From a virus, in the IMG/VR virus record IMGVR_UViG_3300045988_090415, positions 1-39,668 of that record: a DNA stretch of 39,668 nucleotides. One strand, given 5' to 3'. A program made the position numbers and the translations under genes. Shown one piece after another: positions 1 to 39,668 of this stretch. Numbering within the stretch: position 1 is the first letter of the stretch; every line of letters begins with the position of its first letter. The notes under the pieces are model-generated. The model was not told where the DNA came from and did not search any database. It saw nothing but the letters and a program-made list of their open reading frames with translations.

Positions 1-98
1 CGATGGGCATCACCGTCGTCTTTGGTACGTCCATTGCGACTATCTTCGGCGTCTTCCTTATCCCCATGATGTTCATCATCGTAGAAACATTCGGACAC
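1..98. repeat. Left copy of the 98-bp direct repeat (candidate attL core)
   Basis: Bases 1-98 are identical to 39571-39668 on direct reading. It lies within the coding 3' end of an RND-type permease fragment, next to the integrase gene. Confidence 0.8.
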
Positions 99-155
99 AG
101 TAAGAAATCCTTTAGTGTGATGAAGAAAACTGTGGAGGATAAGCGCCTACATTAG
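3..155 (+). CDS. 3'-terminal fragment of an RND (AcrB/HAE1-type) efflux permease; last transmembrane helix plus a short tail
   Basis: The frame starting at base 3 reads MGITVVFGTSIATIFGVFLIPMMFIIVETFGHSKKSFSVMKKTVEDKRLH, with stop TAG at 153-155. The hydrophobic stretch resembles the final TM helix of AcrB as I recall it ([21 protein letters not shown]). The ORF is open to the window edge. Confidence 0.55.
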   Translation: MGITVVFGTSIATIFGVFLIPMMFIIVETFGHSKKSFSVMKKTVEDKRLH

Positions 156-165
156 CACCTTTTGT

Positions 166-1236
166 CTACACGGGTAACGTCATGTGACACGTGGGTAACG
201 AGTGTGTATAATACTTTAGGGTAGTCTCGATATTCGAGTGTCCCATAAGCACACTCACAGTCTTTACGTCCACATGGAATACCGTGATGAGCAAGGTAGC
301 ATAGGTGTGTCTTGTGTCGTACAGATGGTGTCCCTTGGAACTTCCCAGTACAGCTTCTACATACTTCTTAAAACGAACATTTACATTATCATGACTCAGA
401 TAACCGTAGGTACTCTTCTCAGACCTGAAGATACCTGCGGTTTTTTCTTCAGTGATTTTGTCTAGTAACCACAGACCCCACTTTGTCTCTATGGGAACCT
501 CCCGTATACTTGTGGAAGTCTTCATGGTTTCCTGTAGCTTGCCTTGGAATCCCAGTGATTTGTTGAAAGACACTTTGTCTTCCTTAATGTCTTCTCTGGT
601 CAGGGCAAGTATTTCCTGTGGTCTTGCTCCTGTAATAAAGGAAAGCACAATGTACACTTGGTATACCACAGGTAGGGTAGACAAATTCTCAATGGATAAC
701 AACTTTTGAACTTCCTCTAGGGAGAACACTTTCTTTTGTCTCTCTTGTCTTCCTTTTAACCTCCTTATGGCTTGTCGGGATTCCATAGGGTTGTTCTCAA
801 GATACCCTTCTAATACCGCTGTTTCTAGGATAGCTTTAAAGTTTTTCCTCCAGCGATCTAATGTAGAAGAAGCGTACCCCTTTGAGGACAGCCCTAGGAA
901 AAACCGATTTATGTCTTGAGGTGTTAAGTCAGAGAACTTTACATGTGCTACTTTACTGTTTTCTACATGTTTCCTATAGAAGTTCTTCAGACCGTTTAAG
1001 GTAGACGCTCGGTATACTCCCGATTTGAGTTCCATGAAGTGTTCAAAGTATTCAGCTACGGTAATAGGGGAGAAGTACTTGATGTCTTTCCCTTTGATGC
1101 CCATAAAGAACTTCTGGCACTCTTCGCGTGTATCAAAGGTTTTGCTAACTCTCTTACCTCCTGATACAGTAATAGTAGCCTTGAATCTTCCATTGGGCCT
1201 TCTCACGATTGACCCTGTACCTTTGTTTCTTCTCAT
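166..1236 (-). CDS. int: Tyrosine recombinase / phage integrase
   Basis: ORF 166-1278. Tyrosine-recombinase catalytic signatures are visible (GARPQEILAL, HHLYDTRHTYATLL, LMGHSNIETTLKYYTH). I prefer Met15 (MRRNKGTGSIV) because AAAGGAGGT lies just upstream. The start is ambiguous between 1236, 1260 and 1278. Confidence 0.9.
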   Translation of the reverse strand: MRRNKGTGSIVRRPNGRFKATITVSGGKRVSKTFDTREECQKFFMGIKGKDIKYFSPITVAEYFEHFMELKSGVYRASTLNGLKNFYRKHVENSKVAHVKFSDLTPQDINRFFLGLSSKGYASSTLDRWRKNFKAILETAVLEGYLENNPMESRQAIRRLKGRQERQKKVFSLEEVQKLLSIENLSTLPVVYQVYIVLSFITGARPQEILALTREDIKEDKVSFNKSLGFQGKLQETMKTSTSIREVPIETKWGLWLLDKITEEKTAGIFRSEKSTYGYLSHDNVNVRFKKYVEAVLGSSKGHHLYDTRHTYATLLITVFHVDVKTVSVLMGHSNIETTLKYYTHSLPTCHMTLPV

Positions 1237-1480
1237 GTAACCTCCTTTCCTTTTCCTCATGTACCTTATGTATATCATAGATTTTAAAAAATTACAGAAA
1301 ATTTATGAGGACATACATGAATGAACAGCACACAGCAGTTCCCCCGTATACCCCTCAGTCATACCACAGTTACAATAATTGAACACATGAGTATATTTTC
1401 ATATATCATTGAGTTTTACCTAACGTCTCGTAGTCCCTTATGGAACACAAGAGACCGCATAACAAAGCCATTTATAATAA

Positions 1481-1514
1481 CCCTGTTGCCTTAACGGTAG
1501 CGGGGTATTTTTTA
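1481..1514 (+). terminator. Possible intrinsic terminator facing incoming host read-through
   Basis: CCCTGTTGCC (1481-1490) pairs with GGTAGCGGGG (1496-1505) using several G-U pairs, with loop TTAAC, followed by TATTTTTTA. No plus-strand gene lies upstream, so its role is speculative. Confidence 0.3.
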
Positions 1515-1515
1515 G

Positions 1516-1598
1516 TTATTTCGTATTACGAACTATTTGTATTCCTAAAGTATAATATTTGTATCCTTATTTTTATTTCGTATTACGAACTATTTGTA
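1516..1598. repeat. Two 26-bp direct repeats, each containing the palindrome TTCGTA-T-TACGAA
   Basis: TTATTTCGTATTACGAACTATTTGTA occurs at 1516-1541 and again at 1573-1598. Non-coding region between int and the moron; candidate protein-binding sites. Confidence 0.7.
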
Positions 1599-1878
1599 CT
1601 GCATAATATTCATAAGGTGTACTGTTTGGTGTACTAAGGGCTCTTATTGATAACTATTTGTTATGTGAAGTGTTCCTAAAGTGAATGATATATCTGTATG
1701 ATATACTTTGGGAATACAACATAATACTATGTAGCATAAGGAATACTATATATTACTTTATATCATTGGCAATACGAATAATTTCATACAAGCAAGATAT
1801 TATTTATTCTAAAGAGTCTTTATAAAATAATATATTATAATTTTTGAAAAAGAAAAAGTTTGCCGCTATTCCTAAAGT
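1542..1878. promoter_or_regulatory. Three copies of TTCCTAAAGT (candidate integrase arm-type sites)
   Basis: TTCCTAAAGT at 1542-1551, 1673-1682 and 1869-1878. A related TCCTAAAG occurs near 39446 on the other side of the att repeat. The function is inferred only from position. Confidence 0.3.
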
Positions 1879-2256
1879 TGAATATTCAGGTAAATTTTTT
1901 GGTGTACTATCTTGTATTTCTTTAGAATATGTTTCCGTTCCGTTCTCGTTATATTTGACTACTTTTTTATATGTATACTTTACATTTTGGGAATCATAGT
2001 CATAGAAAAAAGTGCATGTCAAAGAAGATATATCCCCACTACTATAATTTTCCCTAAATACAGTACCCTTTATAATATAAAAAGGTGGATCATATCGCAC
2101 AACCTCTGTACTATTTACATCCATGTATGTGGTGGATTCAATATCACTATTTATTTTAATGTATTGACTGGATTCTGATAAAAAATTTGCGGCGAATGTA
2201 CTAAATGAAAACCCAAAAAATAATAGGATACTACATAATATTTTTACTATATACAT
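1804..2256 (-). CDS. Secreted protein of unknown function (AT-rich moron)
   Basis: ORF 1804-2271. The second Met is preceded by GGGAGGAG. The N-terminus MYIVKILCSILLFFGFSFSTFA/ANF looks like a signal peptide. The region is visibly far more AT-rich than the rest of the phage and lacks the TTTGTCT motif. Confidence 0.6.
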   Translation of the reverse strand: MYIVKILCSILLFFGFSFSTFAANFLSESSQYIKINSDIESTTYMDVNSTEVVRYDPPFYIIKGTVFRENYSSGDISSLTCTFFYDYDSQNVKYTYKKVVKYNENGTETYSKEIQDSTPKNLPEYSTLGIAANFFFFKNYNILFYKDSLE

Positions 2257-2297
2257 TTGCACTCCTCCCATGGTTAATATAAGAATATTATATCAAA

Positions 2298-2343
2298 ATA
2301 AAGGTCACTTTAGAATACTTTTATTATCTAAAGTGACCTTTAT
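2298..2343. terminator. Perfect 17-bp hairpin terminator between the RHH gene and the moron
   Basis: ATAAAGGTCACTTTAGA (2298-2314) is the exact reverse complement of TCTAAAGTGACCTTTAT (2327-2343), with a 12-nt loop and T-rich flanks on both strands. Confidence 0.75.
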
Positions 2344-2347
2344 TTGT

Positions 2348-2500
2348 TTAGTCTGAATGTTCCTTTATATACTCCTCAATCCATTGTCTTATTAATTCAC
2401 TACTATTAACTGCCTTGCTTTTACATATCTGCTGAAATTTGTCTCTTGTCTCTTTTTCTAAGCGGACATTTATCCTAACTTCCTTTGTCTTTTCTATCAT
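2348..2500 (-). CDS. Ribbon-helix-helix (CopG/Arc/MetJ-like) DNA-binding protein, candidate prophage repressor
   Basis: Not in the ORF track (50 aa). My translation: MIEKTKEVRINVRLEKETRDKFQQICKSKAVNSSELIRQWIEEYIKEHSD. It shows the beta-strand, helix, helix pattern typical of RHH proteins, has a GAGGTGAG RBS upstream, and is divergent from the early promoter. Confidence 0.65.
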   Translation of the reverse strand: MIEKTKEVRINVRLEKETRDKFQQICKSKAVNSSELIRQWIEEYIKEHSD

Positions 2501-2524: not shown

Positions 2525-2553
2525 ATTATAACATGCTTCACATGTGAATACAA
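2525..2553 (-). promoter_or_regulatory. Sigma70-type promoter for the RHH gene
   Basis: The minus strand reads TTGTAT, then 17 nt, then TATAAT (plus-strand coordinates 2548-2553 and 2525-2530), about 25 nt upstream of the RHH start. The -35 overlaps the operator-like box TGTGAATACA. Confidence 0.5.
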
Positions 2554-2664
2554 TTTTTTTTTAAAAATGGGTTGACATGTGAGTACAAGAATGATATGAT
2601 ATAGCCATCAAGAGAAGTGAGTACATGGAATCACACAACTTAAAATGTGAGTACATGGAATCAC
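2543..2664. promoter_or_regulatory. Four operator-like boxes (A)TGTGA(G/A)TACA
   Basis: Boxes at 2543-2552, 2578-2587, about 2616-2625 and about 2646-2655. The last two sit inside an exact 18-bp direct repeat, GTGAGTACATGGAATCAC (2617-2634 and 2647-2664), 30 bp apart. Confidence 0.6.
2572..2600 (+). promoter_or_regulatory. Sigma70-type early promoter of the phage
   Basis: TTGACA (2572-2577), then a 17-nt spacer, then TATGAT (2595-2600), directed into the early operon. The spacer begins with the box TGTGAGTACA. Confidence 0.6.
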
Positions 2665-2693: not shown

Positions 2694-2969
2694 ATGACAA
2701 ACTTAGAAACCACACAAAAAATCAATGCTAACAAAATCTTTACCTGCACACGGAGGGTATTTACACCCGAGTTTAAAGCAATGGTAGTTAAAGAATATGA
2801 AGCCGGAATCACTAGAAAAGAATTAGCTAAAAAATATGACATCTTGCCTAACTATATTAATCGCTGGAAACAACGAGTACAAAAAGTAACACAAAGTATA
2901 AATGAAGAAACTAAAAGATACAAAGCACAAATTATAGAAAAGCACCAGAAAGAAATAGACAAAAAGTAG
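2694..2969 (+). CDS. Helix-turn-helix protein resembling IS3-family OrfA (transposase_8 HTH); likely a regulator
   Basis: GAGGAGG lies 10 nt upstream of ATG 2694. The sequence FTPEFKAMVVKEYEAGITRKELAKKYDILPNYINRWKQ matches the OrfA HTH pattern. The upstream Met codons of the tracked ORF (2625) fall inside the operator repeats. Confidence 0.6.
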   Translation: MTNLETTQKINANKIFTCTRRVFTPEFKAMVVKEYEAGITRKELAKKYDILPNYINRWKQRVQKVTQSINEETKRYKAQIIEKHQKEIDKK

Positions 2970-3152: not shown

Positions 3153-3587
3153 ATGACTATGACAAGAGAAGAAGCTATTCGCAATTACGTTGAACACTTA
3201 ATCGGGGACGACCTTGCTAACTTGCTCCAGCACATGAACTCGTATGACGGGTGCTTTGAAGAATCCGTCTATTATGACATGGGAGAATTTGATGAATTTC
3301 TGTCGAACCACACCCCCATGGAAATTGCTCAAATGATTTTCTATGGCGGCGACTTTAATCCTAACAGTGAATATTTTCACTTCAATGCCTATGGGAACCT
3401 AGAGTCTGCTAATTGGGGCGATGTAGTAGCAGAGGCAGAAGACTTAGAAGAAGACATTATTTACCACCTTGTAACTTGTTACAGTGGTGACACTCCGTGG
3501 GCAGAATTAGACTACCTTGTCGACGCGGACGACGACGCCTTATTCAACGAAGACTACGAAGAAGTTGACGAAGAAGAAGACCAGTAG
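3153..3587 (+). CDS. Highly acidic early protein (candidate DNA mimic / anti-restriction protein, positional analogue of T7 Ocr)
   Basis: 144 aa, very rich in D and E with a poly-acidic tail (DYEEVDEEEDQ). It is the second gene of the host-RNAP early operon. No confident family match from memory. Confidence 0.35.
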   Translation: MTMTREEAIRNYVEHLIGDDLANLLQHMNSYDGCFEESVYYDMGEFDEFLSNHTPMEIAQMIFYGGDFNPNSEYFHFNAYGNLESANWGDVVAEAEDLEEDIIYHLVTCYSGDTPWAELDYLVDADDDALFNEDYEEVDEEEDQ

Positions 3588-3674
3588 TGGGTTTAACAGA
3601 GTACCCTAGGATTCTCTCTAGGGTATTCGATTAAGTCCACTAGTGACTTTACTACACATAAGGGAGGAATTACC

Positions 3675-4223
3675 ATGATAAAGACCATGACGGAAAAGCA
3701 AGTAGATTTTTGTTTCCATGTTTATTCACAAGTGCAGGAAGTGTTGTTCTTGCGTACTCAGTTCGCTGAAGACAGAGCAGTTATCTTTCAGCTTAATCAG
3801 CGAACACGTAGCCTAGGCCGGTGTCACGTGTATGGTTCTGATCTGGCTCGCATTGAAATTAGTGAATACGCCTTAGATGACACGGGTATGCCCTTTATGG
3901 AAACCCTAGTACACGAATGTATTCACGCCTGCCTTCCTATGTATGAACACCACGGCAGTAAATTCAAACAAGCTTGTGTCGTGTGTGGGGAACACTTTGG
4001 ACTTACTTTGTCTCGCTTAGCTTCCCCTAGTGTGACTAAGGCGTTTGTCTCTAATCAGCCTAGGGGCAAGTATAAAGTCGTGTGGGAAGATGGCACTTCT
4101 ACTTGCTACAAGACAAAGAAGGCATGGGTTGTCAAGGACTTGCTAGAGCACGGCGGTTCTCGTGTCTACAAGCTCACGACAGGGGAAACCATGAGAGCCG
4201 AGTTGATTGTAAGGGAAGACTAG
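3675..4223 (+). CDS. SprT-like zinc metallopeptidase-domain protein
   Basis: HExxH motif in LVHECIHACLP, followed by a His/Cys-rich segment (YEHHGSKFKQACVVCGEHF). Strong RBS GGGAGGA. Confidence 0.5.
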   Translation: MIKTMTEKQVDFCFHVYSQVQEVLFLRTQFAEDRAVIFQLNQRTRSLGRCHVYGSDLARIEISEYALDDTGMPFMETLVHECIHACLPMYEHHGSKFKQACVVCGEHFGLTLSRLASPSVTKAFVSNQPRGKYKVVWEDGTSTCYKTKKAWVVKDLLEHGGSRVYKLTTGETMRAELIVRED

Positions 4224-4282
4224 CATACCGAACAAGTGTTTGATATACTAGAGAAATAGAACAAGCGTTCGGAGGTGACAAC

Positions 4283-4513
4283 ATGAGTTACTACGCATAT
4301 GTGGGAAGACCTTGCCAATTAGAGGCGGAAATAGAAAACCTACAGAATCAAGGCTATTGTCTGTTCAGCCGCTTCACAGGCTCAGAAGGGGGACGCAAGG
4401 TGAAGCAGGAACTAGCTAGGGTACAGCAAGCCTTTCCTGACAGGCACTATGTCGTCCTCAAGGGAGGCAAGACCCATAAGGATACATATAAGCAAGCCAT
4501 ATTGTTCAAGTAA
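4283..4513 (+). CDS. Hypothetical early protein (76 aa)
   Basis: ORF with a GGAGGTG RBS. It is the last gene before the early terminator. Confidence 0.5.
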   Translation: MSYYAYVGRPCQLEAEIENLQNQGYCLFSRFTGSEGGRKVKQELARVQQAFPDRHYVVLKGGKTHKDTYKQAILFK

Positions 4514-4520
4514 TAGTAGT

Positions 4521-4572
4521 AGCAGGTAACTGAATATGAAAAAAAGTGTCGTTCAGTTACCTGCTATTTTTA
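4521..4572 (+). terminator. Strong intrinsic terminator between the early operon and the RNAP gene
   Basis: AGCAGGTAACTGAA (4521-4534) is the exact reverse complement of TTCAGTTACCTGCT (4552-4565). A perfect 14-bp stem, followed by ATTTTTA. Confidence 0.8.
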
Positions 4573-4599
4573 TACCTAGTGAGCCAAACAAACGTTCTA

Positions 4600-4623
4600 T
4601 TAATTGTCCCACATGCTAGAGGA
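4600..4623 (+). promoter_or_regulatory. Variant phage-RNAP promoter (P1) directly upstream of the RNAP gene
   Basis: TTAATTGTCCCACATGCTAGAGGA matches the 24-nt consensus except around -3 to -1. Its downstream part doubles as the RBS (GAGGAGG) for ATG 4635. Confidence 0.6.
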
Positions 4624-4634
4624 GGTAATTAAAA

Positions 4635-7193
4635 ATGATGACATTAGAACAACAGTTAGAACTTGAAAAGATGTACAAAGGTTTAGCAGAAAACCGTGCT
4701 TTGCAGGTATTGAACAAGGCGAAAGCAGACGGGGCCTATGAACGGACTCGTGTAGGTCAAGGCATTATGAATCACCTAGCAGAAACGTACTCAGCAAATG
4801 TACAAGCTTTCGTAGAAGATTGCATACAGCCTAAACGGGGTGTACAACCTGCCTACGCTAAAATCGTCAAAGATTACGCACTAGCCCTACAAGGTGACAC
4901 GAAAAAATTGGCTAGGCTTTGCGCTACGTTGTCTTTGAAAATTACTATTAGTGCTATGATGAGGCGTTCCCTCACTGCCAATAATATTGGTGGTGCAATC
5001 GGACTTGAATTAGAGCCAGAAGTAGAAGCAATGTCGTTTTTCGAAGACAAAGAAAACAAACGCTTTGACAAGAGCCTTAAAGAGCGTGTCAATTTCTCGT
5101 ACCGCCGTAATTTCATGGAGCATGTATACAAGGGTGTAGGCTTTACGTTCGCCAAGCACACTCCAAAAGAAAGAACCACACTAGGTATGCAGTTACTTGC
5201 TGTACTCGTGGAAACAACAGACTTCTTTGTTTTTCAAGAAGTATCGGAGGAAGGAAAGACACAGCCCTTACAAGTTCTCCCTACGGACATCTTTTTACAG
5301 GCTATAGCTAATGCAGAGGACAAGAGCGTGGGACAAGCCATTACGTATGTTCCAACTATTATTCCCCCGAAACCATGGACTAATTTTTGGGACGGGGGAT
5401 ACTACGGAGCTTTGTCTCAAAACAAAACCTTAATGCGCTACATTCCTTATGCAAGGTCTTCACAGACACGCAAGCTCTACACAGCCAGACTAAACGAACT
5501 TGATCTGTCTAGCCTTTACTCAGCGGTCAACGCTATTCAAGCGACAGCCTATAGAATTAACAAGTCTGTCTTAGAAGTCATCAAGCACTACTTAAATGTG
5601 GGTGGTGGAGCAGCAGGATTAGCAGAGACAAAACCTCTCGAACAGCTCCCACGCTTCCCTCATGCCTATGAGGACATTAAGGAAAACGAAGAGCTACTCA
5701 AGCAGTTCAAAGCACACAAAAAGAAGATGGTGGAAGTCATTCACAAGGAAAACCAGCGCAAAGGAAAGGCCCTGAGAGCTGTAATGATTATCAAAGTAGC
5801 TGAGGACTTTGCAAAGTATGACAAAATCTGGTTCCCGATGAACATAGACTTTCGGGGCCGTGTCTACCCAATCCCCACGGGCCTAAATCCACAGGGGGAT
5901 GACATGACAAAGGCCCTCTTGCAATACGCAGAGCCTACCCCCGTATCTGCTGAAGACGCTCCCGACGCCCTCAAGTGGCTGTCAATTCATGGTGCAGGAC
6001 TAGCAGGTCATGACAAAATTCCTCTGGAAAACCGTGTAGCATGGGTAGAGGAAAATAGGCAGAATATTTTGTCTAGTGCTGAAAATCCATTGGACTTTCC
6101 TTGGTGGCAAGAACAAGATAAGCCGTGGCAGTTTTTGGCGTGGACGATGGAATACAAGAGGGCTTTAGAATACTTAGACACACACAAGACCCTAGCAGGT
6201 TTTGACTGTCGTTGTACAATCGCATATGACGGTACATGCTCAGGTCTTCAGCACTACAGTTGTCTTCTCCGTGACCCTGTTGGCGGCTCCTCTGTCAACT
6301 TGATTGACCACGACAAACCAGCAGATATTTATAGAGAAGTTTCAGATAAGGTCTTGACAATGGTTAAGAAAGATGTTATAGAAGGAACCTTAAAAGGCAA
6401 GGAGCGGAAAGATGGTACATTTGGGCCAGGAACGAAGCAGCTGGCAGAAGCGTGGCTCGCTCATGGTATTAATCGCAAAGTATGCAAGCGTCCTGTCATG
6501 ACTCTAGCTTACGGAAGTGGGCAGTATGGTTTTGCTGACCAAGTTTATGAAGACACTGTAGCGGATAACCCTTGCTTTGCTGGTGTCGGTGAAAGACAAG
6601 CGGCTCAGTACCTAGCAAAGCTCATTTGGAAGGCAGTACAGACGACAGTCGTTGCCGCCATTGAAGGTATGGAGTGCTTAAAGAAGATTGCCACAGCCCT
6701 TGCAAAAGCGGATATGCCTGTCGAATGGGTGACACCAATGGGCCTGCCAATTCAGCAGATGTACCTAGCACGGAAAACGGAGTCGTTCAGATTGCGCCTT
6801 GGTAACTCCTCCACACGCTATCGTATCTATGTAACAACCGTAAGTGAGAACGAAGACGTAGACAGACACAAGCAAGCTACAGGGGTAGCTCCGAACTTCA
6901 TCCACTCCCTCGACGCTACACATCTCATGATGAGCATTAACGAAGCAAGTAGACAAGGGTGTGTGAACTTCAGTACCGTTCATGATTCGTTCGGGACTTC
7001 CCTCGGTGAAGCGGCTCGATTGCGTCGTATCATTAGACAAGAGTTAGTCAAGCTGTACACCGAGCATGATCCCTTAGCTGAGTTCTTGAGACATGCTGAA
7101 GAGCTGTTAGGGGAACCATTAGACATTGAACTGCCCGAAAAAGGTTCATTAGACATCAACTGTATCTTAGATAGTAAGTTCGTTTTCCACTAG
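4635..7193 (+). CDS. T7-like single-subunit DNA-dependent RNA polymerase
   Basis: 852 aa. Motifs align with T7 RNAP as I recall it: DFRGRVYP, YDGTCSGLQHYS, KRPVMTLAYGS, APNFIHSLDATHL and VHDSFGT. Confidence 0.95.
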   Translation: MMTLEQQLELEKMYKGLAENRALQVLNKAKADGAYERTRVGQGIMNHLAETYSANVQAFVEDCIQPKRGVQPAYAKIVKDYALALQGDTKKLARLCATLSLKITISAMMRRSLTANNIGGAIGLELEPEVEAMSFFEDKENKRFDKSLKERVNFSYRRNFMEHVYKGVGFTFAKHTPKERTTLGMQLLAVLVETTDFFVFQEVSEEGKTQPLQVLPTDIFLQAIANAEDKSVGQAITYVPTIIPPKPWTNFWDGGYYGALSQNKTLMRYIPYARSSQTRKLYTARLNELDLSSLYSAVNAIQATAYRINKSVLEVIKHYLNVGGGAAGLAETKPLEQLPRFPHAYEDIKENEELLKQFKAHKKKMVEVIHKENQRKGKALRAVMIIKVAEDFAKYDKIWFPMNIDFRGRVYPIPTGLNPQGDDMTKALLQYAEPTPVSAEDAPDALKWLSIHGAGLAGHDKIPLENRVAWVEENRQNILSSAENPLDFPWWQEQDKPWQFLAWTMEYKRALEYLDTHKTLAGFDCRCTIAYDGTCSGLQHYSCLLRDPVGGSSVNLIDHDKPADIYREVSDKVLTMVKKDVIEGTLKGKERKDGTFGPGTKQLAEAWLAHGINRKVCKRPVMTLAYGSGQYGFADQVYEDTVADNPCFAGVGERQAAQYLAKLIWKAVQTTVVAAIEGMECLKKIATALAKADMPVEWVTPMGLPIQQMYLARKTESFRLRLGNSSTRYRIYVTTVSENEDVDRHKQATGVAPNFIHSLDATHLMMSINEASRQGCVNFSTVHDSFGTSLGEAARLRRIIRQELVKLYTEHDPLAEFLRHAEELLGEPLDIELPEKGSLDINCILDSKFVFH

Positions 7194-7202
7194 TGCGACT
7201 AG

Positions 7203-7255: not shown

Positions 7256-7278
7256 TACTATAAAGAACACTTGTTTGG

Positions 7279-32732: not shown

Positions 32733-34417
32733 ATAGTGTGAATTTAAAAGCGAGCGTTTCCTTTGTGGGAGATGGCTCTACGAATAAATTTTACTTTGGG
32801 TTCGACTATATCAATAAGCAGTTCGTGAAGGTGCAAGTGGGGGCTGAGAGTTCTCCCCTCACTTACCTGTCTGACTATACTGTGGATGATCGTAGTGTTA
32901 CCCTAACGGATACTCCTGCTGTAGGGGTAGCTATCAGGGTATACCGTGAGACTCCTTCAGACAGGATTATTGAGTGGGCAGATGGGGCTTTTATTAAGGC
33001 ATCCCAGATGACACTGGAAAATTTACAGCAGTTACATTTGATTGAAGAAGCGCAGGATTACCCTATTCTTAATTCTTTGTCTAAATATCCTGATGGTTTT
33101 AATTTTAATGCTTTGGGTTCCCGTATTATTGGTGTAAGTGACCCTAGAGACCCCCAAGATGTCGTAACGAAACACTACATGGAGAGTGTGCAGGACGGCT
33201 TTGTAGCTCGTAACACTTCCTTATTGGAACAGACAACTACACAAGCGACCAATGCCAAAAATAGTGCGTCCAGTTCAGCTACATCAGCTTCCCAGAGTGC
33301 TTCTAGTGCCAGTGCTTCTGAAACATCTAATCAGTCTGCTAAGAAGTGGGCTGAGTCTACAGATTCCCCAGACAATCAGGCAGATACGGACAGCACGACA
33401 GGAAAGACACAGAGTAGTCGTAGTTGGGCATTGTATAGTAAGGCAAAAGCACAGGAAGCGGAAACGTCTGCAACGAACGCTAAGACCTCGGAGACAAACG
33501 CAAAGGCTTCTGAAACCAATGCGAAAACCTCGGAAACGAAAGCGGCTACGTCGGAAGCTAATGCAAAGACTTCGGAAACTAATGCTAAGTCCTCGGAAAC
33601 TAAATCTAAGGATTCTGAAAATGCCGCTCGTGTGTCTGAACAGAACGCCGCTGAGAGCGCAAGGGTGGCAACGGAGAACGCTATGGACTTCAATATGTTG
33701 AAGCGAAATAAAGCGTACTCCATTGGTGACATTGCATATTCTTCTTACCTTCCTTCATGGGCAAGGCTGGAATGTGTCACAGCAGGTACAACGGCAGACA
33801 CAGTACCTTTCTCTATTACTACGGTGTCTAGTGGTGGGGTACTAATTAGTGATGGTACAGTAACTTGGATTGTTGATGATGTACGGGATATGACGCCTGT
33901 TGGGTGTATACGAGGGAGTTTGTTCTTACCTAAAGGGTACATTAAGGCCAATGGGGCTCCGGTATATAGGGCAGATTATCCAAGACTCGTACAGTTTATA
34001 GACAGTAATAATTTATGGACGGATGACACAGCGAATAATGCAGGGTTGTTCGGTAAGGGAGATGGGAACAGTACCTTTGTGCTTCCTGATTATCGGGAGC
34101 GTATGCTTCAATATACAGATGGGTATATAGGTAGGCAGAGATACGCAGGTCTCCCTAATCTTTGGGGTGGGTTTAGTGCTACGAGTAATGTAGCAAGAAA
34201 TGTTCCTTCTTCTGTGCTTATAAAGGCTGGTGGCTGTATGAGAAATAACAGCGTGACACAGGATATTGTTACTCTTCATACAGGAACGCATGATGTAACA
34301 CTTTTTGATACTTATGACCAGGTAATTTTTGACGCCAGCACTTTTAATAGTATTTATGGTTCATCAACCACAGTTCAGCCCCCTTCAATCAACGTCATCC
34401 CTGTAATTAGATACTAG
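32726..34417 (+). CDS. Tail fiber: T7 gp17-like N-terminal adaptor, heptad-repeat shaft, C-terminal phage tail-collar domain
   Basis: The N-terminal roughly 110 aa parallel T7 gp17 (ends LHLIEEAQD versus MHVAEEARD). C-terminal KANGAPVYRADYPRLVQFI...GDGNSTFVLPDYRERML fits the tail-collar motif. Confidence 0.85.
   Translation: MVNSVNLKASVSFVGDGSTNKFYFGFDYINKQFVKVQVGAESSPLTYLSDYTVDDRSVTLTDTPAVGVAIRVYRETPSDRIIEWADGAFIKASQMTLENLQQLHLIEEAQDYPILNSLSKYPDGFNFNALGSRIIGVSDPRDPQDVVTKHYMESVQDGFVARNTSLLEQTTTQATNAKNSASSSATSASQSASSASASETSNQSAKKWAESTDSPDNQADTDSTTGKTQSSRSWALYSKAKAQEAETSATNAKTSETNAKASETNAKTSETKAATSEANAKTSETNAKSSETKSKDSENAARVSEQNAAESARVATENAMDFNMLKRNKAYSIGDIAYSSYLPSWARLECVTAGTTADTVPFSITTVSSGGVLISDGTVTWIVDDVRDMTPVGCIRGSLFLPKGYIKANGAPVYRADYPRLVQFIDSNNLWTDDTANNAGLFGKGDGNSTFVLPDYRERMLQYTDGYIGRQRYAGLPNLWGGFSATSNVARNVPSSVLIKAGGCMRNNSVTQDIVTLHTGTHDVTLFDTYDQVIFDASTFNSIYGSSTTVQPPSINVIPVIRY
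33464..33652 (+). repeat. Nine tandem 21-bp (heptad TSETNAK-type) repeats inside the tail fiber gene
   Basis: TSATNAK, TSETNAK, ASETNAK, TSETKAA, TSEANAK, TSETNAK, SSETKSK, DSENAAR, VSEQNAA, read in frame. These repeats also generate the spurious overlapping ORFs at 33252-33701 (+) and 33376-33732 (-). Confidence 0.8.
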
Positions 34418-34435
34418 AAAGGAGTTGTTAAAATA

Positions 34436-34780
34436 ATGGAAGATAAAGTAAAAATAGTCTATGCTTTTAATCTTTTAACTAAGGAATATGAAGGGTCTAA
34501 AGTGCTTGATAAAACTGACCAGAGTCCGATAAGTGGTGCTTGGCAAATTCCTTGTAATATGGTAGAAGTAACTCCCCCTGAAATTCCAGAAGATCACAAA
34601 TGTATCTGGGATGGTACGCAGTGGATTCTTAAAGAAGTTGAAAAACCAAAAGAACCTGAAATTCCAGAAATATCGCAGGTTCCAGAAAGCACAACACAGA
34701 CACCTTCTTTGTCTGGACGCATTGCAGCTATTGAGGATGCTGTCAACACCTTAATGGAAGGAGTGGGTACAAATGGCTAA
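34436..34780 (+). CDS. Hypothetical protein, possibly a tail-fiber assembly/chaperone-like protein
   Basis: 114 aa directly after the fiber gene, with an AAGGAG RBS. Assigned by position only. Confidence 0.35.
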   Translation: MEDKVKIVYAFNLLTKEYEGSKVLDKTDQSPISGAWQIPCNMVEVTPPEIPEDHKCIWDGTQWILKEVEKPKEPEIPEISQVPESTTQTPSLSGRIAAIEDAVNTLMEGVGTNG

Positions 34781-34937
34781 ATACTTAGCATATCAGATTA
34801 TCTTACATAAATTGATGTATAACAACGTTATTGCAAGGTTCCCTAAGTACAAAGAAGATATTGACAAGGTACTTGACGATATGGGATGGATGATTGACAC
34901 AGAAGGTAACTGCGTAGGTAAGGAAGATGAAAAATGA
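34773..34937 (+). CDS. Hypothetical small protein (54 aa) upstream of the holin
   Basis: Below the ORF-track cutoff. MAKYLAYQIILHKLMYNNVIARFPKYKEDIDKVLDDMGWMIDTEGNCVGKEDEK. Overlaps its neighbours by 8 nt and by ATGA. Confidence 0.4.
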   Translation: MAKYLAYQIILHKLMYNNVIARFPKYKEDIDKVLDDMGWMIDTEGNCVGKEDEK

Positions 34938-35401
34938 AACGAGGTACACTACACAAAATGATTAACACAGTCTGGAATTTATGGACAGCCACAGAGGTAA
35001 AGATTGGCTGTCTTTTTTCTATTGCTTGGTTGTGTTTCAATCAGCTTGTGGGTGGCGTGGATGAGCAGATTAATGCCTTGGTCGCCCTTGTGGCCTGCGA
35101 TATTATCACGGGCCTTTGGGCTTCCTTTAAACTCCATGCTTTCGCAAGTTCGATTGCCACACACGGCCTGTACAAAAAAGCCACGATGTTCCTTATCATT
35201 GGGCTGGGTGTCTTATTAGATTCTGCCATGCATACTCATATGGTACGGACGCTTTTTATTGGGGCTTTCGCAATTGTGGAAGCTTTAAGTATTGTGGAAA
35301 ATATTGATCGTGCTGGTTATGGTCAGTATATTCCTAGTTTTATTCGGGGTGCTTTAGCACAGATTGCACATGAGAAGAAGGTGGACAAATTAGATGATTA
35401 G
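34934..35401 (+). CDS. Holin (phage_holin_4_1 / phi-LC3-type family)
   Basis: Multiple TM segments and the family pattern ...DIITGLWASF...GLYKKATMFLIIGLGVLLD...IVEALSIVENIDRAGY..IP. Immediately upstream of the endolysin. Confidence 0.75.
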   Translation: MKRGTLHKMINTVWNLWTATEVKIGCLFSIAWLCFNQLVGGVDEQINALVALVACDIITGLWASFKLHAFASSIATHGLYKKATMFLIIGLGVLLDSAMHTHMVRTLFIGAFAIVEALSIVENIDRAGYGQYIPSFIRGALAQIAHEKKVDKLDD

Positions 35402-35987
35402 TAAAGTAATTGACGTTTCCTATTATCAGAAAGATATTGATTATGACGCAGTGGAAGCCGCTGGCGTACAAGGTGTTATCATTAAAATCTCCGAAGGATG
35501 TACAGAAGAAGACACATGGATTAGACACGTAAATGAATGTGATGCACGGGGTATCCCTTGGGGTGTCTACTGCTTCTCGCACGCTCAGACACCAGAAAGA
35601 GCAAAGGAAGAAGCACAGACGGTTTTGGACTTGCTCGGTGTTGATGTACCACCTATGGGGATTTGGTTTGATTGTGAAGCTGATGAATGTTTTGAAGACG
35701 GCGTAGACACAACGGCTATCTGCTCCGCTTTTATTGTCACTTGTAATGAAGCAGGATACAGCGCAGGTATTTACACTTCCTCGTTGAAATGCACAGATTA
35801 TATGACAAACTCTATTCGGCCTCACTTGCTGGCCGACTATGTTCCTTATTGGATTGCGGATTACCGTGGGTACAATGAGTTTGCTCAGAACTACCCCGAT
35901 AAGCATGTAGCAGGTTGGCAGTGGAGCGCCCATGAATATATTGGAGACACAGAGGTAGATATGAATGAATGGTATGAGGAGCTGTAA
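35394..35987 (+). CDS. Endolysin, glycoside hydrolase family 25 muramidase (catalytic domain only)
   Basis: N-terminus VIDVSYYQKDIDYDAVEAAGVQGVIIKISEG...GIPWGVYCFSHA is the GH25 signature. No cell-wall-binding domain follows. Confidence 0.85.
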   Translation: MISKVIDVSYYQKDIDYDAVEAAGVQGVIIKISEGCTEEDTWIRHVNECDARGIPWGVYCFSHAQTPERAKEEAQTVLDLLGVDVPPMGIWFDCEADECFEDGVDTTAICSAFIVTCNEAGYSAGIYTSSLKCTDYMTNSIRPHLLADYVPYWIADYRGYNEFAQNYPDKHVAGWQWSAHEYIGDTEVDMNEWYEEL

Positions 35988-36308
35988 ATGAATGAAGATG
36001 ACAACAAAACATATCCTGCAAAAGTGGTTCTTGTGTCTTTCGCTCTTGGTGTGCTTTTGTGCCTTTTCGGGTGTGTCTGCTTCTACAGTTCACGCACAGA
36101 AAGTAGAAATGTCAATCGAACAATTCAACAGCTTACGGCAGATGGTGACAGAGCTACAGAAGCAGTCAACAGCGCAGAAACAGGACTCTCAGAAGCTCAA
36201 GACACAGCTAACAGAATCTCAGAAAGAGTTGACGAAAGCACAAGTATACTTGACCGATTACAAGCAGAACTTGACAGAATTGCAGAAGCAAACGGACTCA
36301 CTGAATAA
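35988..36308 (+). CDS. Alternative-frame ORF: N-terminal TM or lipoprotein-like signal (LLCLFG-C) plus an acidic coiled coil
   Basis: Starts 4 nt before the previous feature, in a different frame, with GAGGAG 6 nt upstream. VVLVSFALGVLLCLFGCVCF, then a helical A/E/D-rich region. Codon choice looks as native as in the other frame. Confidence 0.4.
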   Translation: MNEDDNKTYPAKVVLVSFALGVLLCLFGCVCFYSSRTESRNVNRTIQQLTADGDRATEAVNSAETGLSEAQDTANRISERVDESTSILDRLQAELDRIAEANGLTE

Positions 36309-36390
36309 GACGACAAAGCGGATGAAAAGACAACGTGATTTAGCTTGGGTTGTCGCAGGTGGCTTATTAGTTTGGGGGTGTACACGATAA
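35992..36390 (+). CDS. Spanin-like protein: N-terminal signal/TM, Q/K-rich coiled coil, C-terminal hydrophobic segment
   Basis: MKMTTKHILQKWFLCLSLLVCFCAFSGVSAS..., a long coiled-coil-like middle, and C-terminal LAWVVAGGLLVWGC. It ends 1 nt before the next gene's ATG. Confidence 0.5.
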   Translation: MKMTTKHILQKWFLCLSLLVCFCAFSGVSASTVHAQKVEMSIEQFNSLRQMVTELQKQSTAQKQDSQKLKTQLTESQKELTKAQVYLTDYKQNLTELQKQTDSLNKTTKRMKRQRDLAWVVAGGLLVWGCTR

Positions 36391-36661: not shown

Positions 36662-36883
36662 ATGGCAAAAAATAAGGTTTTACATAAGTGCGACATTGTT
36701 CGTGTAGATGTACGCAATTTTCAGCAGATTGGTAGTGACTATGTATATGGTGAAGTTCAAAAACATATAGAAGGCATTGAAGGTAAATTATGTTATGACA
36801 TACGCCTATTAGGTACTGAAATGTTTATAGTTGTCTCTTGTGACAAGGTTAAGAAAGAGTGGAGTATGCATGACAATAAATAA
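36662..36883 (+). CDS. Stand-alone VRVDVRNF-domain protein (paralogue of the N-terminus of 7520-7954)
   Basis: MAKNKVLHKCDIVRVDVRNFQQIGSDYVYGEVQKHIEGIEGKLCYDIRLLGTEMFIVVSCDKVKK aligns along its length with KKVLRDYETVRVDVRNFDAIDGDYVYGEIQRNMDLAGVLCYEVRLRGTDTYIVVNEDRVQK. Confidence 0.55.
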   Translation: MAKNKVLHKCDIVRVDVRNFQQIGSDYVYGEVQKHIEGIEGKLCYDIRLLGTEMFIVVSCDKVKKEWSMHDNK

Positions 36884-37289
36884 GGTTTTATATAGCAGTG
36901 AAAATGAAGTGTGGGAGACACCGAAAGACCTATTTGATAAGCTGGATACTGAGTTCCATTTTGACATAGATGTGTGTGCCTTACCTTCCAATGCTAAATG
37001 TACTACTTTCTTTACTCCAGATCAGGATGGCTTGAAGCAGAAGTGGAAAGGTGTCTGCTGGATGAATCCTCCTTACGGCAGGAAGATTGGGGCATGGATG
37101 AGTAAAGCTTTGGAGTCAAAGACCACTGTGGTATGTCTCGTACCTGCCAGAACAGACACAAAGTGGTGGCATGACTATGCAATGAAAGCCTCTGAGATTC
37201 GCTTTGTAAAGGGCAGACTAAAGTTTGGAGACAGCAAGAATAGCGCTCCTTTTCCCAGTGCTATAATCGTATTCAGAAAAAAAAAATAA
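36870..37289 (+). CDS. Phage Dam-family DNA N6-adenine methyltransferase
   Basis: EVWETPKDLFDKLDTEFHFDIDVCA...WMNPPYG...CLVPARTDTKWWH...FVKGRLKF matches the PF05869-type pattern, including NPPY. ATG 36870 is preceded by GAGTGGAG. Confidence 0.8.
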   Translation: MTINKVLYSSENEVWETPKDLFDKLDTEFHFDIDVCALPSNAKCTTFFTPDQDGLKQKWKGVCWMNPPYGRKIGAWMSKALESKTTVVCLVPARTDTKWWHDYAMKASEIRFVKGRLKFGDSKNSAPFPSAIIVFRKKK

Positions 37290-37333
37290 TGAAAATATAA
37301 AGGTAACTAGCTTCGAGAAAGGGTGATAGTAGT

Positions 37334-37609
37334 ATGAGTAAAATCAATCCAAAACTGCTAGATATTCTGGCAGAAGAAGAGGTAAATGCCTTGATTGAGG
37401 GTATTCAGGACGAAGACTTGAGACACAGCCCCCAGTTTTTGGCAAAAGTCAGACAGTTCTTGAAAGATAATGAGTTAAAGACAACACCTGAAACAACAAC
37501 TCCTTTAGTGTCTATGGTTACGAAAGAACTTCCTGACTTCTTGGATGATGCTGAAGATGAAGGAGGTGATGTGAAGGGTGCAAGTTCAATGGACACCAGA
37601 GCAAATTGA
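37334..37609 (+). CDS. Terminase small subunit, gp18-like
   Basis: 91 aa (T7 gp18 is 89 aa), directly upstream of and overlapping the large terminase. Assigned by position. Confidence 0.55.
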   Translation: MSKINPKLLDILAEEEVNALIEGIQDEDLRHSPQFLAKVRQFLKDNELKTTPETTTPLVSMVTKELPDFLDDAEDEGGDVKGASSMDTRAN

Positions 37610-39296
37610 AGCGGCTAAGAAAGACTTCAGGAAGTTCTTGTTTATTCTCTGGTATGAAATCGCTCTTCCTGAACCAACAGACATACAGTATGCAATCGCA
37701 ACTCTCCTTATGAAATGCCCTGAGAAGAGGTACATTATTGAAGGGTTCCGTGGTGTTGCAAAGTCCTTCATCACTTGTGCTTATGTTGTGTGGTCACTTT
37801 GGAATGACCCTCAACTGAAATGTCTAATCATATCTGCAAGTAAAGATAGAGCGGATGCAAACGCTGTGTTCATCAGGAAGATAATCTACTTACTGGACTT
37901 TTTGTCGCATCTAAAACCACGGGACGGCCAGCGTAATACCCAAAACCTTTTTGATGTTGGGGAGGCTGTAGCGGATATTTCCCCGTCCGTAAAGTCTGTA
38001 GGTATCACTGGTCAGATAACAGGGAGTCGTGCAGACATATTGATTGCTGATGACGTTGAAATTCCAAACAATTCTAGTACACAGACACGAAGAGACAAGC
38101 TGTTTGAGGATGTAAAGGAATTTGACGCCATTATCAAGCCAGGGGACAGAAGCAAGGTCATATACCTTGGTACTCCACAGAACGAAATGTCCCTGTATAA
38201 TGAGCTTCAGAACCGTGGGTATTCCTGCTATATTTTCCCCTTAGTATACCCTGAAACACCAGAAGAACGTGAATACTATGGGGACAAATTAGCTCCCTTT
38301 ATTGCTACTCCTTACGACAAAAACCCCACTCTGTACGCAGGTAAACCTACAGATCCTCGCAGATTCCCTGAAGAAGAAATCGAGGAACGTAGGCTGTCCT
38401 ACGGTAAGGCGGGGTTTTCTTTGCAATTCAAACTGAATACGAACTTGTCTGACTACGAAAAATATCCTCTGAAGACACAGGACTTGATAGTGTCTAATGT
38501 GGACATGGATGAAACTTCTTTAAAGTGGTCTTGGTCAAGTGGTTATGAGTATCGCCTGAATGACCTTCCCTGTGTCGCCATTAAGGGTGACTTTTTCTAT
38601 CGTGAGCATAGCAGAAGTCAAGAGACAGCTAAGTATACAGGTTGTGTTATGGCTGTTGACCCTTCTGGTAGGGGTACTGACGAAACTGCCTACGCTATAG
38701 TGAAGTACCTGAATGGGTATCTTTTTGTAGTAGAAGTTGGTGGTTTTCAGGACGGTTACTCAGATGCCGTGTTGACACAGCTGGCTAACAAGGCTAAAAT
38801 CCATGGAGTTAATGAGATTATCGTAGAAGCAAACTTTGGGGACGGTATGTTCACCCAGCTGTTCAAGCCTATCCTAACTAGTATTTACCCATGTGCTATT
38901 CAGGAAGTGAAGAACACAGTACAGAAGGAAGCCCGTATTATAGACACCTTAGAGCCTGTTATGATGAGACACAAGATTATCATGGCTGAAACAGTTATTC
39001 GAGATGACTACAGCGTGTATGAGGAAAAGGGACAGAAATACTCACTGATTTATCAGATGACCCGACTAAGTAGAGATAGGGGTTCATTGGCACACGATGA
39101 CCGTTTAGATGCCCTGACTATGGCTGTGTCTTACTGGTTAGATGTCATGGATAGAGATTACCAGACTGGACTGGATGAGCAGTTAGAAGAATTTCTGGAG
39201 ACAGCTCTGGATGAAGATAGAGGGTTGTTCTCTATGATGTACGGAGTAGAAGAAGATGTAGGTAGTAATAGGAACATTATGAAGAAGAAATGGTAA
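37578..39296 (+). CDS. Terminase large subunit, gp19-like
   Basis: 572 aa. Walker-A-like FRGVAKSF, Walker B ILIADDVE, and a C-terminal nuclease-like region with acidic residues. GTG start 9 nt after AGGAGGTG. Confidence 0.85.
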   Translation: MQVQWTPEQIEAAKKDFRKFLFILWYEIALPEPTDIQYAIATLLMKCPEKRYIIEGFRGVAKSFITCAYVVWSLWNDPQLKCLIISASKDRADANAVFIRKIIYLLDFLSHLKPRDGQRNTQNLFDVGEAVADISPSVKSVGITGQITGSRADILIADDVEIPNNSSTQTRRDKLFEDVKEFDAIIKPGDRSKVIYLGTPQNEMSLYNELQNRGYSCYIFPLVYPETPEEREYYGDKLAPFIATPYDKNPTLYAGKPTDPRRFPEEEIEERRLSYGKAGFSLQFKLNTNLSDYEKYPLKTQDLIVSNVDMDETSLKWSWSSGYEYRLNDLPCVAIKGDFFYREHSRSQETAKYTGCVMAVDPSGRGTDETAYAIVKYLNGYLFVVEVGGFQDGYSDAVLTQLANKAKIHGVNEIIVEANFGDGMFTQLFKPILTSIYPCAIQEVKNTVQKEARIIDTLEPVMMRHKIIMAETVIRDDYSVYEEKGQKYSLIYQMTRLSRDRGSLAHDDRLDALTMAVSYWLDVMDRDYQTGLDEQLEEFLETALDEDRGLFSMMYGVEEDVGSNRNIMKKKW

Positions 39297-39316
39297 TTGT
39301 CCCACATATATACAAA
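39293..39316 (+). promoter_or_regulatory. Degenerate phage-RNAP promoter P6, overlapping the terminase stop codon
   Basis: GTAATTGTCCCACATATATACAAA. The upstream 16 nt match the consensus, but the initiation region diverges. Confidence 0.4.
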
Positions 39317-39320
39317 GTAG

Positions 39321-39344
39321 TTAATTGTCCCACATACAGAGGAA
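39321..39344 (+). promoter_or_regulatory. Phage-RNAP promoter P7 (consensus), facing the right att site
   Basis: Exact TTAATTGTCCCACATACAGAGGAA. Positional analogue of the T7 right-end promoter. Confidence 0.75.
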
Positions 39345-39570
39345 GGGGGAGGAAAACTAAAGTATATCTAAGTATTTCCTCTGTTCCTCTAGTATACCTA
39401 AGTATTCCTTAGTATTACAGTTAGGAGTCCTTTAGTATCCTAAAGAACACCGAACCTTAGGAACTCAAAGGGGACACAACTGGAACCCTAAGGGAACTCA
39501 CTAAGGAAAAACACCAACAACTACACCTAACTGCCTTCCATAAAGCATTACTAAGAGGGACACAGAGTTA
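39345..39570. repeat. Non-coding right arm with TAAGTA/CCTAAG repeats (second origin candidate and/or integrase arm sites)
   Basis: TAAGTATTCCTTAGTA at 39399-39414 is one mismatch from the 7306 and 7365 repeat. Multiple CTAAGTAT, CCTTAGG, CCCTAAGGG and TCCTAAAG elements. Confidence 0.45.
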
Positions 39571-39668
39571 CGATGGGCATCACCGTCGTCTTTGGTACGT
39601 CCATTGCGACTATCTTCGGCGTCTTCCTTATCCCCATGATGTTCATCATCGTAGAAACATTCGGACAC
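39571..39668. repeat. Right copy of the 98-bp direct repeat (candidate attR core)
   Basis: Identical to 1-98. The window ends exactly at the end of the repeat. Confidence 0.8.

Follow-up and report, generated by a model that had tools for sequence, protein, structure and literature searches.

Temperate phages built on the T7 plan have been described several times: integrase-bearing T7-like genomes are known, a T7-like prophage resides in Pseudomonas putida KT2440, and integration has been demonstrated for the phages Pasto and HTVC019P (PMC10134795). T7-like prophages have also been surveyed (Boeckman et al. 2022, Virology 568:86, as cited in PMC10134795). The Pseudomonas phage LUZ100 combines a MarR-like repressor with a phage promoter before the RNA polymerase (RNAP) gene, and a silencing logic was proposed on transcriptomic evidence; stable LUZ100 lysogens were not obtained, and the evidence for entry into and maintenance of lysogeny is ambiguous across the group (PMC10134795). 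Here we analyze a stretch of 39,668 nt, the IMG/VR record IMGVR_UViG_3300045988_090415, which is referred to below as the window. We assign the whole of it, with a probability of roughly 85%, to a temperate, T7-like podophage of Megasphaera (Negativicutes), whose complete genome is bounded here by its two copies of the attachment (att) site. An earlier interpretation of the letters alone (the sequence-only reading) had recognized a T7-order genome with an integrase, a small repressor module, and att repeats, which is borne out by the gene families and an exact 98-nt repeat. Its premise that T7-type phages are obligately lytic was overstated, since temperate T7-likes are documented (PMC10134795); the temperate status of the window phage itself was upheld. 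Its view that the silencing of such a phage is largely unexplored has to be qualified, as models based on MarR repression and a phage promoter before the RNAP gene have been published.

The window phage shares its T7 chassis, a single-subunit RNAP, a tyrosine integrase, and the prophage state with Pasto (MT708545, deposited as Rhizobium phage Pasto), HTVC019P (NC_020483, Pelagibacter), LUZ100, and the KT2440 prophage. LUZ100, too, has a phage-specific promoter directly before the RNAP gene and a terminator that host polymerase must pass (PMC10134795), which gives the same proposed positive-feedback logic. The regulator (winged-helix or MarR-like) and the integrase of Pasto and HTVC019P are co-directional early genes, and in HTVC019P the pair lies immediately upstream of the RNAP gene, whereas the integrase of the window phage is found at the far left, on the opposite strand and beside attP, and its repressor is a 50-aa ribbon-helix-helix (RHH) protein divergent from the early operon. 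Searches of the window proteins with Pfam, PHROG, and NCBIfam detected neither a MarR nor a winged-helix gene. The integrase is 22% identical to those of Pasto and HTVC019P (pairwise E 1e-6), which match each other at E 8e-30. HTVC019P and LUZ100 keep a tRNA-Leu sequence beside the integrase (PMC10134795), whereas the target of the window phage is a protein-coding gene; tRNA and Rfam scans of the window were both empty, so no tRNA target is used and no known RNA family is present. The hosts differ as well, a diderm Firmicute here and Proteobacteria for the Pasto, HTVC019P, and LUZ100 group. The window phage thus functions like the known temperate T7-likes but stands outside their MarR-integrase group. 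Lysogeny of T7-like phages is neither new nor a new kind of system; it is the lysogeny module that differs from the known cases. No paper on a T7-like prophage of Megasphaera or other Negativicutes was found in a literature search that did not extend to the content of the 2022 survey. Two incidental traces did turn up, an oral-plaque "T7-like prophage" without assignment and a tree of tail fibres whose root is a homologue from Megasphaera hexanoica. Public databases already contain the sequences, with polymerases named "DNA-directed RNA polymerase [Megasphaera sp.]" and "MAG TPA ... Caudoviricetes sp.".

The window comprises a 39,570-bp unit plus the exact 98-nt direct repeat at both ends, and this repeat is the att core. 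It encodes the final transmembrane segment, MGITVVFGTSIATIFGVFLIPMMFIIVETFGH, of an AcrB-type RND efflux pump (family ACR_tran), and the insertion lies in the last ~100 bp, at the 3' end, of that gene. The sequence-only reading had named an RND efflux gene as the target, and records with host junctions agree. From the left core copy, the frame stays open for 18 codons supplied by the phage and then reaches a stop. Integration swaps the last 15 native codons for these 18 and duplicates about 100 bp, the RND product having 1053 aa in lysogens and 1050 aa in its native form. Because the substitute tail is carried by the phage, the pump gene stays intact after integration. Phage 21 and e14 of E. 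coli likewise insert into the 3' end of a gene, icd, and carry a replacement end. Their attP copies the 3' end of the gene so that the host gene keeps its function; the target in the present case is an RND efflux transporter. The phage and host copies are identical over positions 1 to 99 and remain partly similar for a few bases to the left of this stretch. Two contigs of another sample, assembled with MEGAHIT at k99, break exactly at window positions 1 and 39668. The assembler probably broke at the att core and so fixed the repeat length at 98 (k-1); where the repeat lies is biological, and the window looks like a segment of an assembly graph bounded by that core. An interpretation of the 98-bp repeat as the terminal repeat of the virion was rejected.

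The junctions attL and attR, the empty attB, and the joined attP are all present in independent public records, which supports the lysogeny that had been proposed from the letters. The attR junction is found on ENA scaffold_303 (60,956 bp, human gut), where the order after the end of the terminase gene is core, native pump tail KRVRPKQTVGRLKDM with its stop, terminator, and bacterial genes with 57% GC, namely NadE, two radical-SAM genes, PhoH, YbeY, Era, and RecO. The terminase-core-integrase junction of attP occurs on the same scaffold, and two IMG/VR contigs (40.9 kb and 41.6 kb), found via RNAP-anchored loci, contain the joined form too. An exact search of IMG/VR for the attP junction pattern gave no match, the pattern having required exact flanks at a fixed and possibly wrong spacing. 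M. elsdenii and M. intestinihominis carry empty attB sites, 97-98% identical to the core, where the RND gene for the 1050-aa product has its 3' end. The attL junction is present in two Megasphaera assemblies at NCBI and on scaffolds of 552 kb and 381 kb, with the order TetR, MFP, RND (1053 aa), integrase; the polymerases of these relatives are 89-91% identical to that of the window. At the same site, the isolate Megasphaera sp. AM44-1BH carries a prophage that is 70-75% identical. Three other public assemblies contain exact copies of the window's polymerase and terminase.

The host belongs to Megasphaera, whose members are strictly anaerobic diderm Firmicutes (Negativicutes). NadE in the attR flank is 99% identical to that of M. 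elsdenii and M. intestinihominis, and the search of flanking contigs for host markers, as well as the Negativicute-like host that the sequence-only reading had inferred tentatively, both lead to this genus through the NadE-PhoH-YbeY-Era-RecO flank. The phage has a GC content of 43-44% and the Megasphaera flank (scaffold_303, 12100-21719) 52-59%, an unusually large gap for a resident prophage.

The lysogeny cassette extends from about 99 to about 3045. Its integrase contains the motifs RHTYAT and LKYYTH and adjoins attP, with the stop codon 67 bp from the core (core end, 98). Against a 2.3 Gb collection, its best phage matches were integrases of the Sfi21/TP-J34 type (29.7% identity, E 6e-20 to 9e-20), which belong to Streptococcus phages such as Sfi21, TP-J34, and O1205. 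In Sfi21, the integrase, a lysogenic-conversion gene, and the repressor lie opposite a rightward early operon. The window shows the same layout, with a leftward integrase by attP, a gene in the lysogenic-conversion position, and a leftward repressor facing the rightward early operon. It differs from the Sfi21 type in having a minimal RHH repressor rather than a CI-like helix-turn-helix (HTH)/metalloprotease pair, and in being a podovirus rather than a siphovirus genome. By these similarities, the phage pool of Firmicutes appears to be the source of the lysogeny module.

Divergent promoters separate the repressor gene from the early operon. The rightward one is of the host type and near consensus (TTGACA-17-TATGAT at 2572-2600, with TG upstream); the leftward one, read by eye, is TTGTAT-17-TGTTATAAT. 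Four direct repeats of TGTGA(G/A)TACA start at 2543, 2578, 2616, and 2646, which is four in 113 bp against an expectation of about 0.01 (shuffles gave 3.79 per whole window), and they overlap both the 2572-2600 promoter and the -35 element of the repressor's own promoter. In the relative L101, whose repressor is 98% identical, three corresponding repeats are kept at the same relative positions. L099, the closest relative by polymerase (98%), lacks these repeats altogether and encodes another RHH protein, of 49 aa, and in other relatives an XRE-type HTH protein replaces the RHH repressor. That the repeats track the repressor type is the pattern expected of exchangeable immunity modules. The first early gene, which encodes an HTH_Tnp_1 protein, is present in the relative L087 and absent in L101; its product could be a Cro-like protein or an excision factor.

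Between the repressor and the integrase lies a moron-like gene for a secreted protein of 150 aa, which has no relatives in PHROGs, Pfam, or NCBIfam. Its promoter has an extended -10 element directly after the upstream terminator. This protein is a candidate lysogenic-conversion or exclusion factor; different small membrane proteins occupy the moron position in relatives. On the + strand, a hairpin with a U-run at 1480-1506 lies beside the 26-bp repeats upstream of the integrase gene and could terminate a short RNA that runs antisense to the leader of the integrase gene.

A possible route to silencing can be read from the arrangement around the polymerase gene. The Arc-like RHH protein would bind the four operator-like repeats, turning off the early operon and regulating its own synthesis. 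The RNAP gene lies at the end of the early operon (4513), behind an 18-bp hairpin, which would act as an intrinsic terminator but might instead be a site for RNase III, so that little host transcription would get there. A weakened phage-type promoter before the gene, followed by a strong ribosome-binding site ahead of the polymerase start, would allow the polymerase, once made, to amplify itself in an all-or-none manner after repression is lifted. The replication, virion, and lysis genes would rely on the phage promoters at 7279-8356, and the whole genome would thus be off under the repressor. The repressor and moron genes, which have their own host-type promoters and terminators, would be expected to stay on in the lysogen. 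The arrangement of hairpin and promoter before the RNAP gene is kept in L087 (a 91% relative). Together, the hairpins and the variant promoter around the polymerase gene suggest a repressed positive-feedback switch.

Seven copies within two mismatches of the putative phage promoter TTAATTGTCCCACATAC were found on the + strand against 0.13 expected. The full consensus occurs only at 7279, 7395, 7467, 8340, and 39321, and the 31-kb replication and late region (8357-39292) has no consensus phage promoter besides one weak site with three mismatches at 25812. Transcription of the late genes may start at the four promoters at 7279-8356, or at a promoter class that the consensus does not capture.

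The sibling L092 (IMGVR_UViG_3300045988_085990, 39,493 bp) is very close to the window phage, with a polymerase that is 96% identical and DNA that is 85-95% identical. It and a second contig (L093) have no att core, integrase, moron, RHH gene, or HTH gene. The cassette is replaced in the sibling (6254-7665) by ~1.4 kb of repeat-rich non-coding DNA with two strong host-type promoters and an 85-aa open reading frame (ORF), and pieces homologous to window 1288-1355 and 1540-1756 are retained. Judged from these remnants, the sibling looks like a virulent deletion derivative of a temperate ancestor. Its large terminase gene is split by an 813-bp insert (4612-5425) with a 192-aa ORF, which may be a homing-endonuclease or intron-like element.

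Several observations weigh against the view that the window is an active temperate phage controlled in this way. The temperate cycle and the binding of the repressor to its operators are both read from sequence only. The integrase-less sibling L092 also has the hairpin and promoter before the RNAP gene, which makes them features of the lineage rather than specific to lysogeny; a purely lysogenic role of the 4516-4573 hairpin was rejected on this ground. T7 has an RNase III processing site before gene 1, and the hairpin could be such a site by analogy. No induction route is visible in the window, with neither a RecA-cleavable repressor nor an antirepressor. The window carries no host flanks and would fit an integrated or an excised copy alike, and the attP junction on scaffold_303 could reflect a tandem double lysogen rather than excision. 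Finally, L087 and L088, from two Megasphaera assemblies, each contain two DDE_5 insertion sequence (IS) copies (6870-8219 and 12824-14173), one in the lysogeny region and the other directly behind the RNAP gene; the family is thus in part decaying.

The last of these observations is also the main argument for a cryptic or defective prophage that is unable to excise or to form virions, and truncated gene calls in L088 point the same way. We regard this as unlikely for the window, in which all long ORFs are intact, every expected gene has its full length, and no IS is present. Contigs of genome length in the attP form exist in IMG/VR, and RNAP clusters at an identity of at least 85% are very numerous, several lying on ~40 kb contigs and some having 80-341 member sequences. 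The close integrase-less sibling, which looks virulent, points to a lineage that still replicates. As another alternative, the phage might be essentially lytic and integrate only occasionally and unstably, as the lack of stable LUZ100 lysogens and the ambiguous maintenance across that group (PMC10134795), the ease with which attP forms were found, and the lack of recognizable induction circuitry would allow. Such a lifestyle is improbable, given that integrated copies occur in assembled isolate genomes and on scaffolds of 0.35-2.7 Mb from several samples, that IS insertions in some of these copies imply long residence, and that the genome contains a dedicated, putative repressor-operator module along with a moron that has a promoter and a terminator to itself.

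A further alternative, close to a refutation named by the sequence-only reading (an assembly overlap of a free circularized contig), is that the window is a free lytic genome, assembled as a circle, with the 98-bp repeat merely the k-mer overlap of a closed graph. The length of the repeat equals k-1 in the k99 MEGAHIT assemblies that hold the identical sequence, the window has no host flank, and T7-like genomes assemble as circles owing to their terminal repeats. The repeat nevertheless lies directly beside the integrase gene, encodes the C-terminus of the RND pump, and closely matches the 3' end of the RND gene in Megasphaera genomes that are free of the phage, and linear contigs of another sample break at the same two positions. 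With attL and attR host junctions at hand, the overlap is contradicted, and we hold this alternative to be highly improbable. A temperate phage bounded by its att copies remains the preferred interpretation.

On the + strand, the window carries all genes in T7 order except for the 2.5-kb lysogeny cassette at the left end (Table 1), as assigned with Pfam, PHROG, and NCBIfam. The GC content is 42-46% along most of the window, with an island of 31-33% at 1-3 kb.

Table 1. Coordinates of the features of the window
Feature	Position	Strand	Basis or remark
Left att core copy (attL side)	1-98	+	Exact repeat; aligned with attP, attR, attB, and attL of other records
3' end of host RND pump reading frame with phage-supplied replacement tail SKKSFSVMKKTVEDKRLH and stop	3-155	+	Translation
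Tyrosine integrase, 356 aa from ATG with AAGGAGGT ribosome-binding site	166-1236	-	Pfam Phage_integrase; PHROG 1, E 2e-53
Two exact 26-bp repeats, each with palindrome TTCGTAtTACGAA, upstream of integrase gene	1516-1541, 1573-1598		
Moron-like gene, 150-aa secreted protein with signal peptide, in 31-33% GC island	1804-2256	-	Translation, GC profile
Intrinsic terminator after repressor gene	2285-2345	-	19-bp stem, -24.1 kcal/mol, z -8.1
RHH protein, 50 aa, Arc-like repressor candidate	2348-2500	-	PHROG 3180/582 "Arc-like repressor", PHROG 876 "transcriptional repressor"; Pfam RHH_1 weak
Switch region with divergent promoters and four direct repeats	2526-2655		
First early gene, 91-aa HTH_Tnp_1 protein	2694-2969	+	Pfam HTH_Tnp_1
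Early genes: 144-aa protein, SprT-like 182-aa protein, 76-aa protein	3153-4513	+	
18-bp hairpin followed by AUUUUUAU, predicted to insulate the RNAP gene	4516-4573	+	-28.1 kcal/mol, z -6.6; conserved in L087
Variant phage-type promoter, 19 nt upstream of RNAP start codon	4600-4616	+	One mismatch to 17-mer consensus; conserved in L087
T7-type single-subunit RNAP, 852 aa	4635-7193	+	phmmer; Pfam RNA_pol and RPOL_N
Hairpin after RNAP gene, position of T7 early terminator	7203-7246	+	-29.6 kcal/mol, z -4.9
Four consensus phage promoters TTAATTGTCCC(A/G)CATAC at 7279, 7395, 7467, 8340	7279-8356	+	
DUF3310 protein, dUTPase, gp2.5-like single-stranded DNA-binding protein, endonuclease I	7520-9457	+	
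Truncated T7 lysozyme (gp3.5) homologue, 120 aa, without zinc ligands	9459-9821	+	Family profile
T7 gp4-type primase/helicase	9799-11391	+	Pfam Helic-prim_T7_N, Toprim_2, DnaB_C
NrdG activase, thioredoxin-like 75-aa protein, NrdD (class III ribonucleotide reductase)	11369-13852	+	
DNA polymerase A (family A), 219-aa protein, 57-aa protein, ThyX, gp6-like exonuclease	14017-18051	+	
Virion module: portal, scaffold, major capsid, tail tubular A and B, three internal virion proteins, T7-type tail fibre, fibre-assembly-like protein	18971-34780	+	PHROGs 449, 1052, 267, 446, 457, 805, 342; tail-fibre families; Pfam Phage_T7_tail
Holin (holin_tox_secr / Phage_holin_4_1; TIGR01593) and single-domain GH25 endolysin	34934-35987	+	
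Two almost fully overlapping membrane-protein ORFs, 106 aa and 132 aa, in different frames, after lysin	35988-36390	+	
Dam methylase, small terminase, large terminase	36870-39296	+	
Two phage-type promoters facing the att site, T7 phiOR position: variant 39293, full consensus 39321	39293-39337	+	
Non-coding arm full of short CCTAAGTA/CCTAAAG-type repeats; candidate integrase arm sites and/or virion-end region	39345-39570	+	
Right att core copy (attR side)	39571-39668	+	Exact repeat

The assignment to the T7 type is based on the virion module and the colinear gene order on one strand. The RNAP matches T7 RNAP structures across residues 96-851 (phmmer, E 1e-125), and its segments DGTCSGLQH, RPVMTLAYGS, and HDSFGT align with T7 motifs A, B, and C. 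The comparison of RNAP, capsid, and terminase suggested earlier returned Autographiviridae, with identities to isolated members of ~35% for the RNAP, ~50% for the capsid, and 52-56% for TerL. Megablast of the first 25 kb against GenBank phages gave two short DNA-polymerase matches only, a yield so small that no close isolate exists there. On these distances, the phage is placed as a deep, uncultivated branch among T7-like phages. With T7 and the Studiervirinae it shares the order from RNAP to terminase, homologues of gp2.5, gp3, gp3.5, gp4, gp5, and gp6, and a virion module with internal core proteins; as in T7, there are a conserved phage promoter of 17-23 nt, a hairpin after the RNAP gene, and right-end promoters. 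It differs from T7 in its RNAP (~35% identity), in the lysogeny cassette, and in the addition of a class III ribonucleotide reductase, ThyX, and Dam. Its lysin is a GH25 enzyme where T7 has the gp3.5 amidase; its own gp3.5 homologue is truncated, and consensus promoters are almost absent from the late region.

The class III ribonucleotide reductase that the sequence-only reading had reported is represented by NrdD and its radical-SAM activase NrdG. NrdD scores 801.9 bits against TIGR02827, over the NCBIfam equivalog cut-off of 568, and NrdG matches TIGR02826 below the cut-off (E 1e-28) and contains the cluster motif CX3CX2C. The strong ribosome-binding sites were confirmed as well: a Shine-Dalgarno match of at least 5 nt precedes 24 of the 41 genes, and a 4-nt core 32 of 41. 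The 144-, 76-, 60-, and 228-aa proteins and a 751-aa internal protein have no informative family in PHROGs, Pfam, or NCBIfam.

As in T7, the gp3.5-like gene is located between endonuclease I and the primase/helicase. Its family profile matches 1ARO_L with E 1.6e-18, and 21 of 48 family members match Amidase_2. The zinc ligands of T7 lysozyme, His17, His122, and Cys130, are needed for amidase activity. In the window protein, Y/S is aligned at His17, and the chain ends at residue 120, ahead of the His122/Cys130 segment. It is probably catalytically dead and a non-catalytic regulator that binds RNAP, and it may have kept only this polymerase-binding role. An AlphaFold model of the protein (pLDDT 47) was too poor for a fold search.

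For lysis, the phage encodes the holin of the Firmicute type and the GH25 lysin with a single domain, as the sequence-only reading had noted. The same reading had pointed to spanin-like ORFs as a sign of an outer membrane; the outer membrane is established by the host flanks, not by these ORFs, whose matches to Rz-like proteins are weak (E about 5e-4 to 8e-4) and which do not conform to the definition of an o-spanin. Both overlapping frames are open in L030, L093, and L099, with an identity of 30-32% to L030 (14858-15308). The 106-aa frame has, by eye, an i-spanin-like layout with an N-terminal membrane anchor and a periplasmic coiled coil, and it weakly matches PHROG 214 (E 8e-4). The 132-aa frame has a signal peptide and a conserved C-terminal membrane anchor (LAWvVAGGLL) and no lipobox, which sets it apart from o-spanins, and its L030 homologue contains no cysteine. 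Negativicutes have neither LolA nor LolB (PMC5007114), and a product that is not a lipoprotein fits such a host. From their layout, the two ORFs may form a non-canonical pair for disruption of the outer membrane in a host without Lol.

These elements can be combined into a broader proposal, which is tentative and, in our judgement, more doubtful than probable. Lysogeny would have been gained independently through a grafted Firmicute-phage cassette that is being lost in virulent siblings. The RHH operator, the terminator before the polymerase gene, the self-activating promoter, and a dead lysozyme that inhibits the polymerase would together form a bistable switch, and the two overprinted membrane proteins would breach the outer membrane of the diderm Firmicute without Lol. 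If true, the switch would explain how a phage with an autonomous polymerase is kept silent. The lineage offers stably and naturally integrated copies in cultured or assembled Megasphaera, several immunity types, and a near-identical sibling without integrase and repressor, and may therefore serve as a comparative and experimental system for the silencing of phages that have their own polymerase. Cultured lysogens are exemplified by AM44-1BH and the strains behind GCA_041327815.1 and GCA_027494185.1. The lineage extends T7-type phages to the diderm Firmicutes of the human gut, and T7-type contigs from the gut should not be assumed to be lytic. How such phages lyse cells with a Megasphaera-type envelope, without Lol and Lpp, is a separate question.

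Short repeats of the types CCTAAGTA, CCTTAGTA, and CCTAAAG cluster at 39397-39487 (beside attP), 7304-7373 (between the promoters after the RNAP gene), and 1544-1871 (lysogeny region). Their possible roles are as arm sites for the integrase, as parts of an origin, or in packaging. A 73-aa ORF at 36662-36883, which precedes Dam, is paralogous to the first 70 residues of the DUF3310 protein (7520-7954), with 52% identity and E 2e-22. A more distant T7-like element, with an RNAP that is 43% identical and named "uncultured Veillonella sp.", adjoins a YadA-like adhesin gene in two human-gut contigs (L090 and L091). No integrase was found within the 10 kb inspected, and an RHH-like 57-aa gene lies upstream, with ATCGAACAT/ATGTTCGAT repeats flanking a TATAAT before the RNAP gene.

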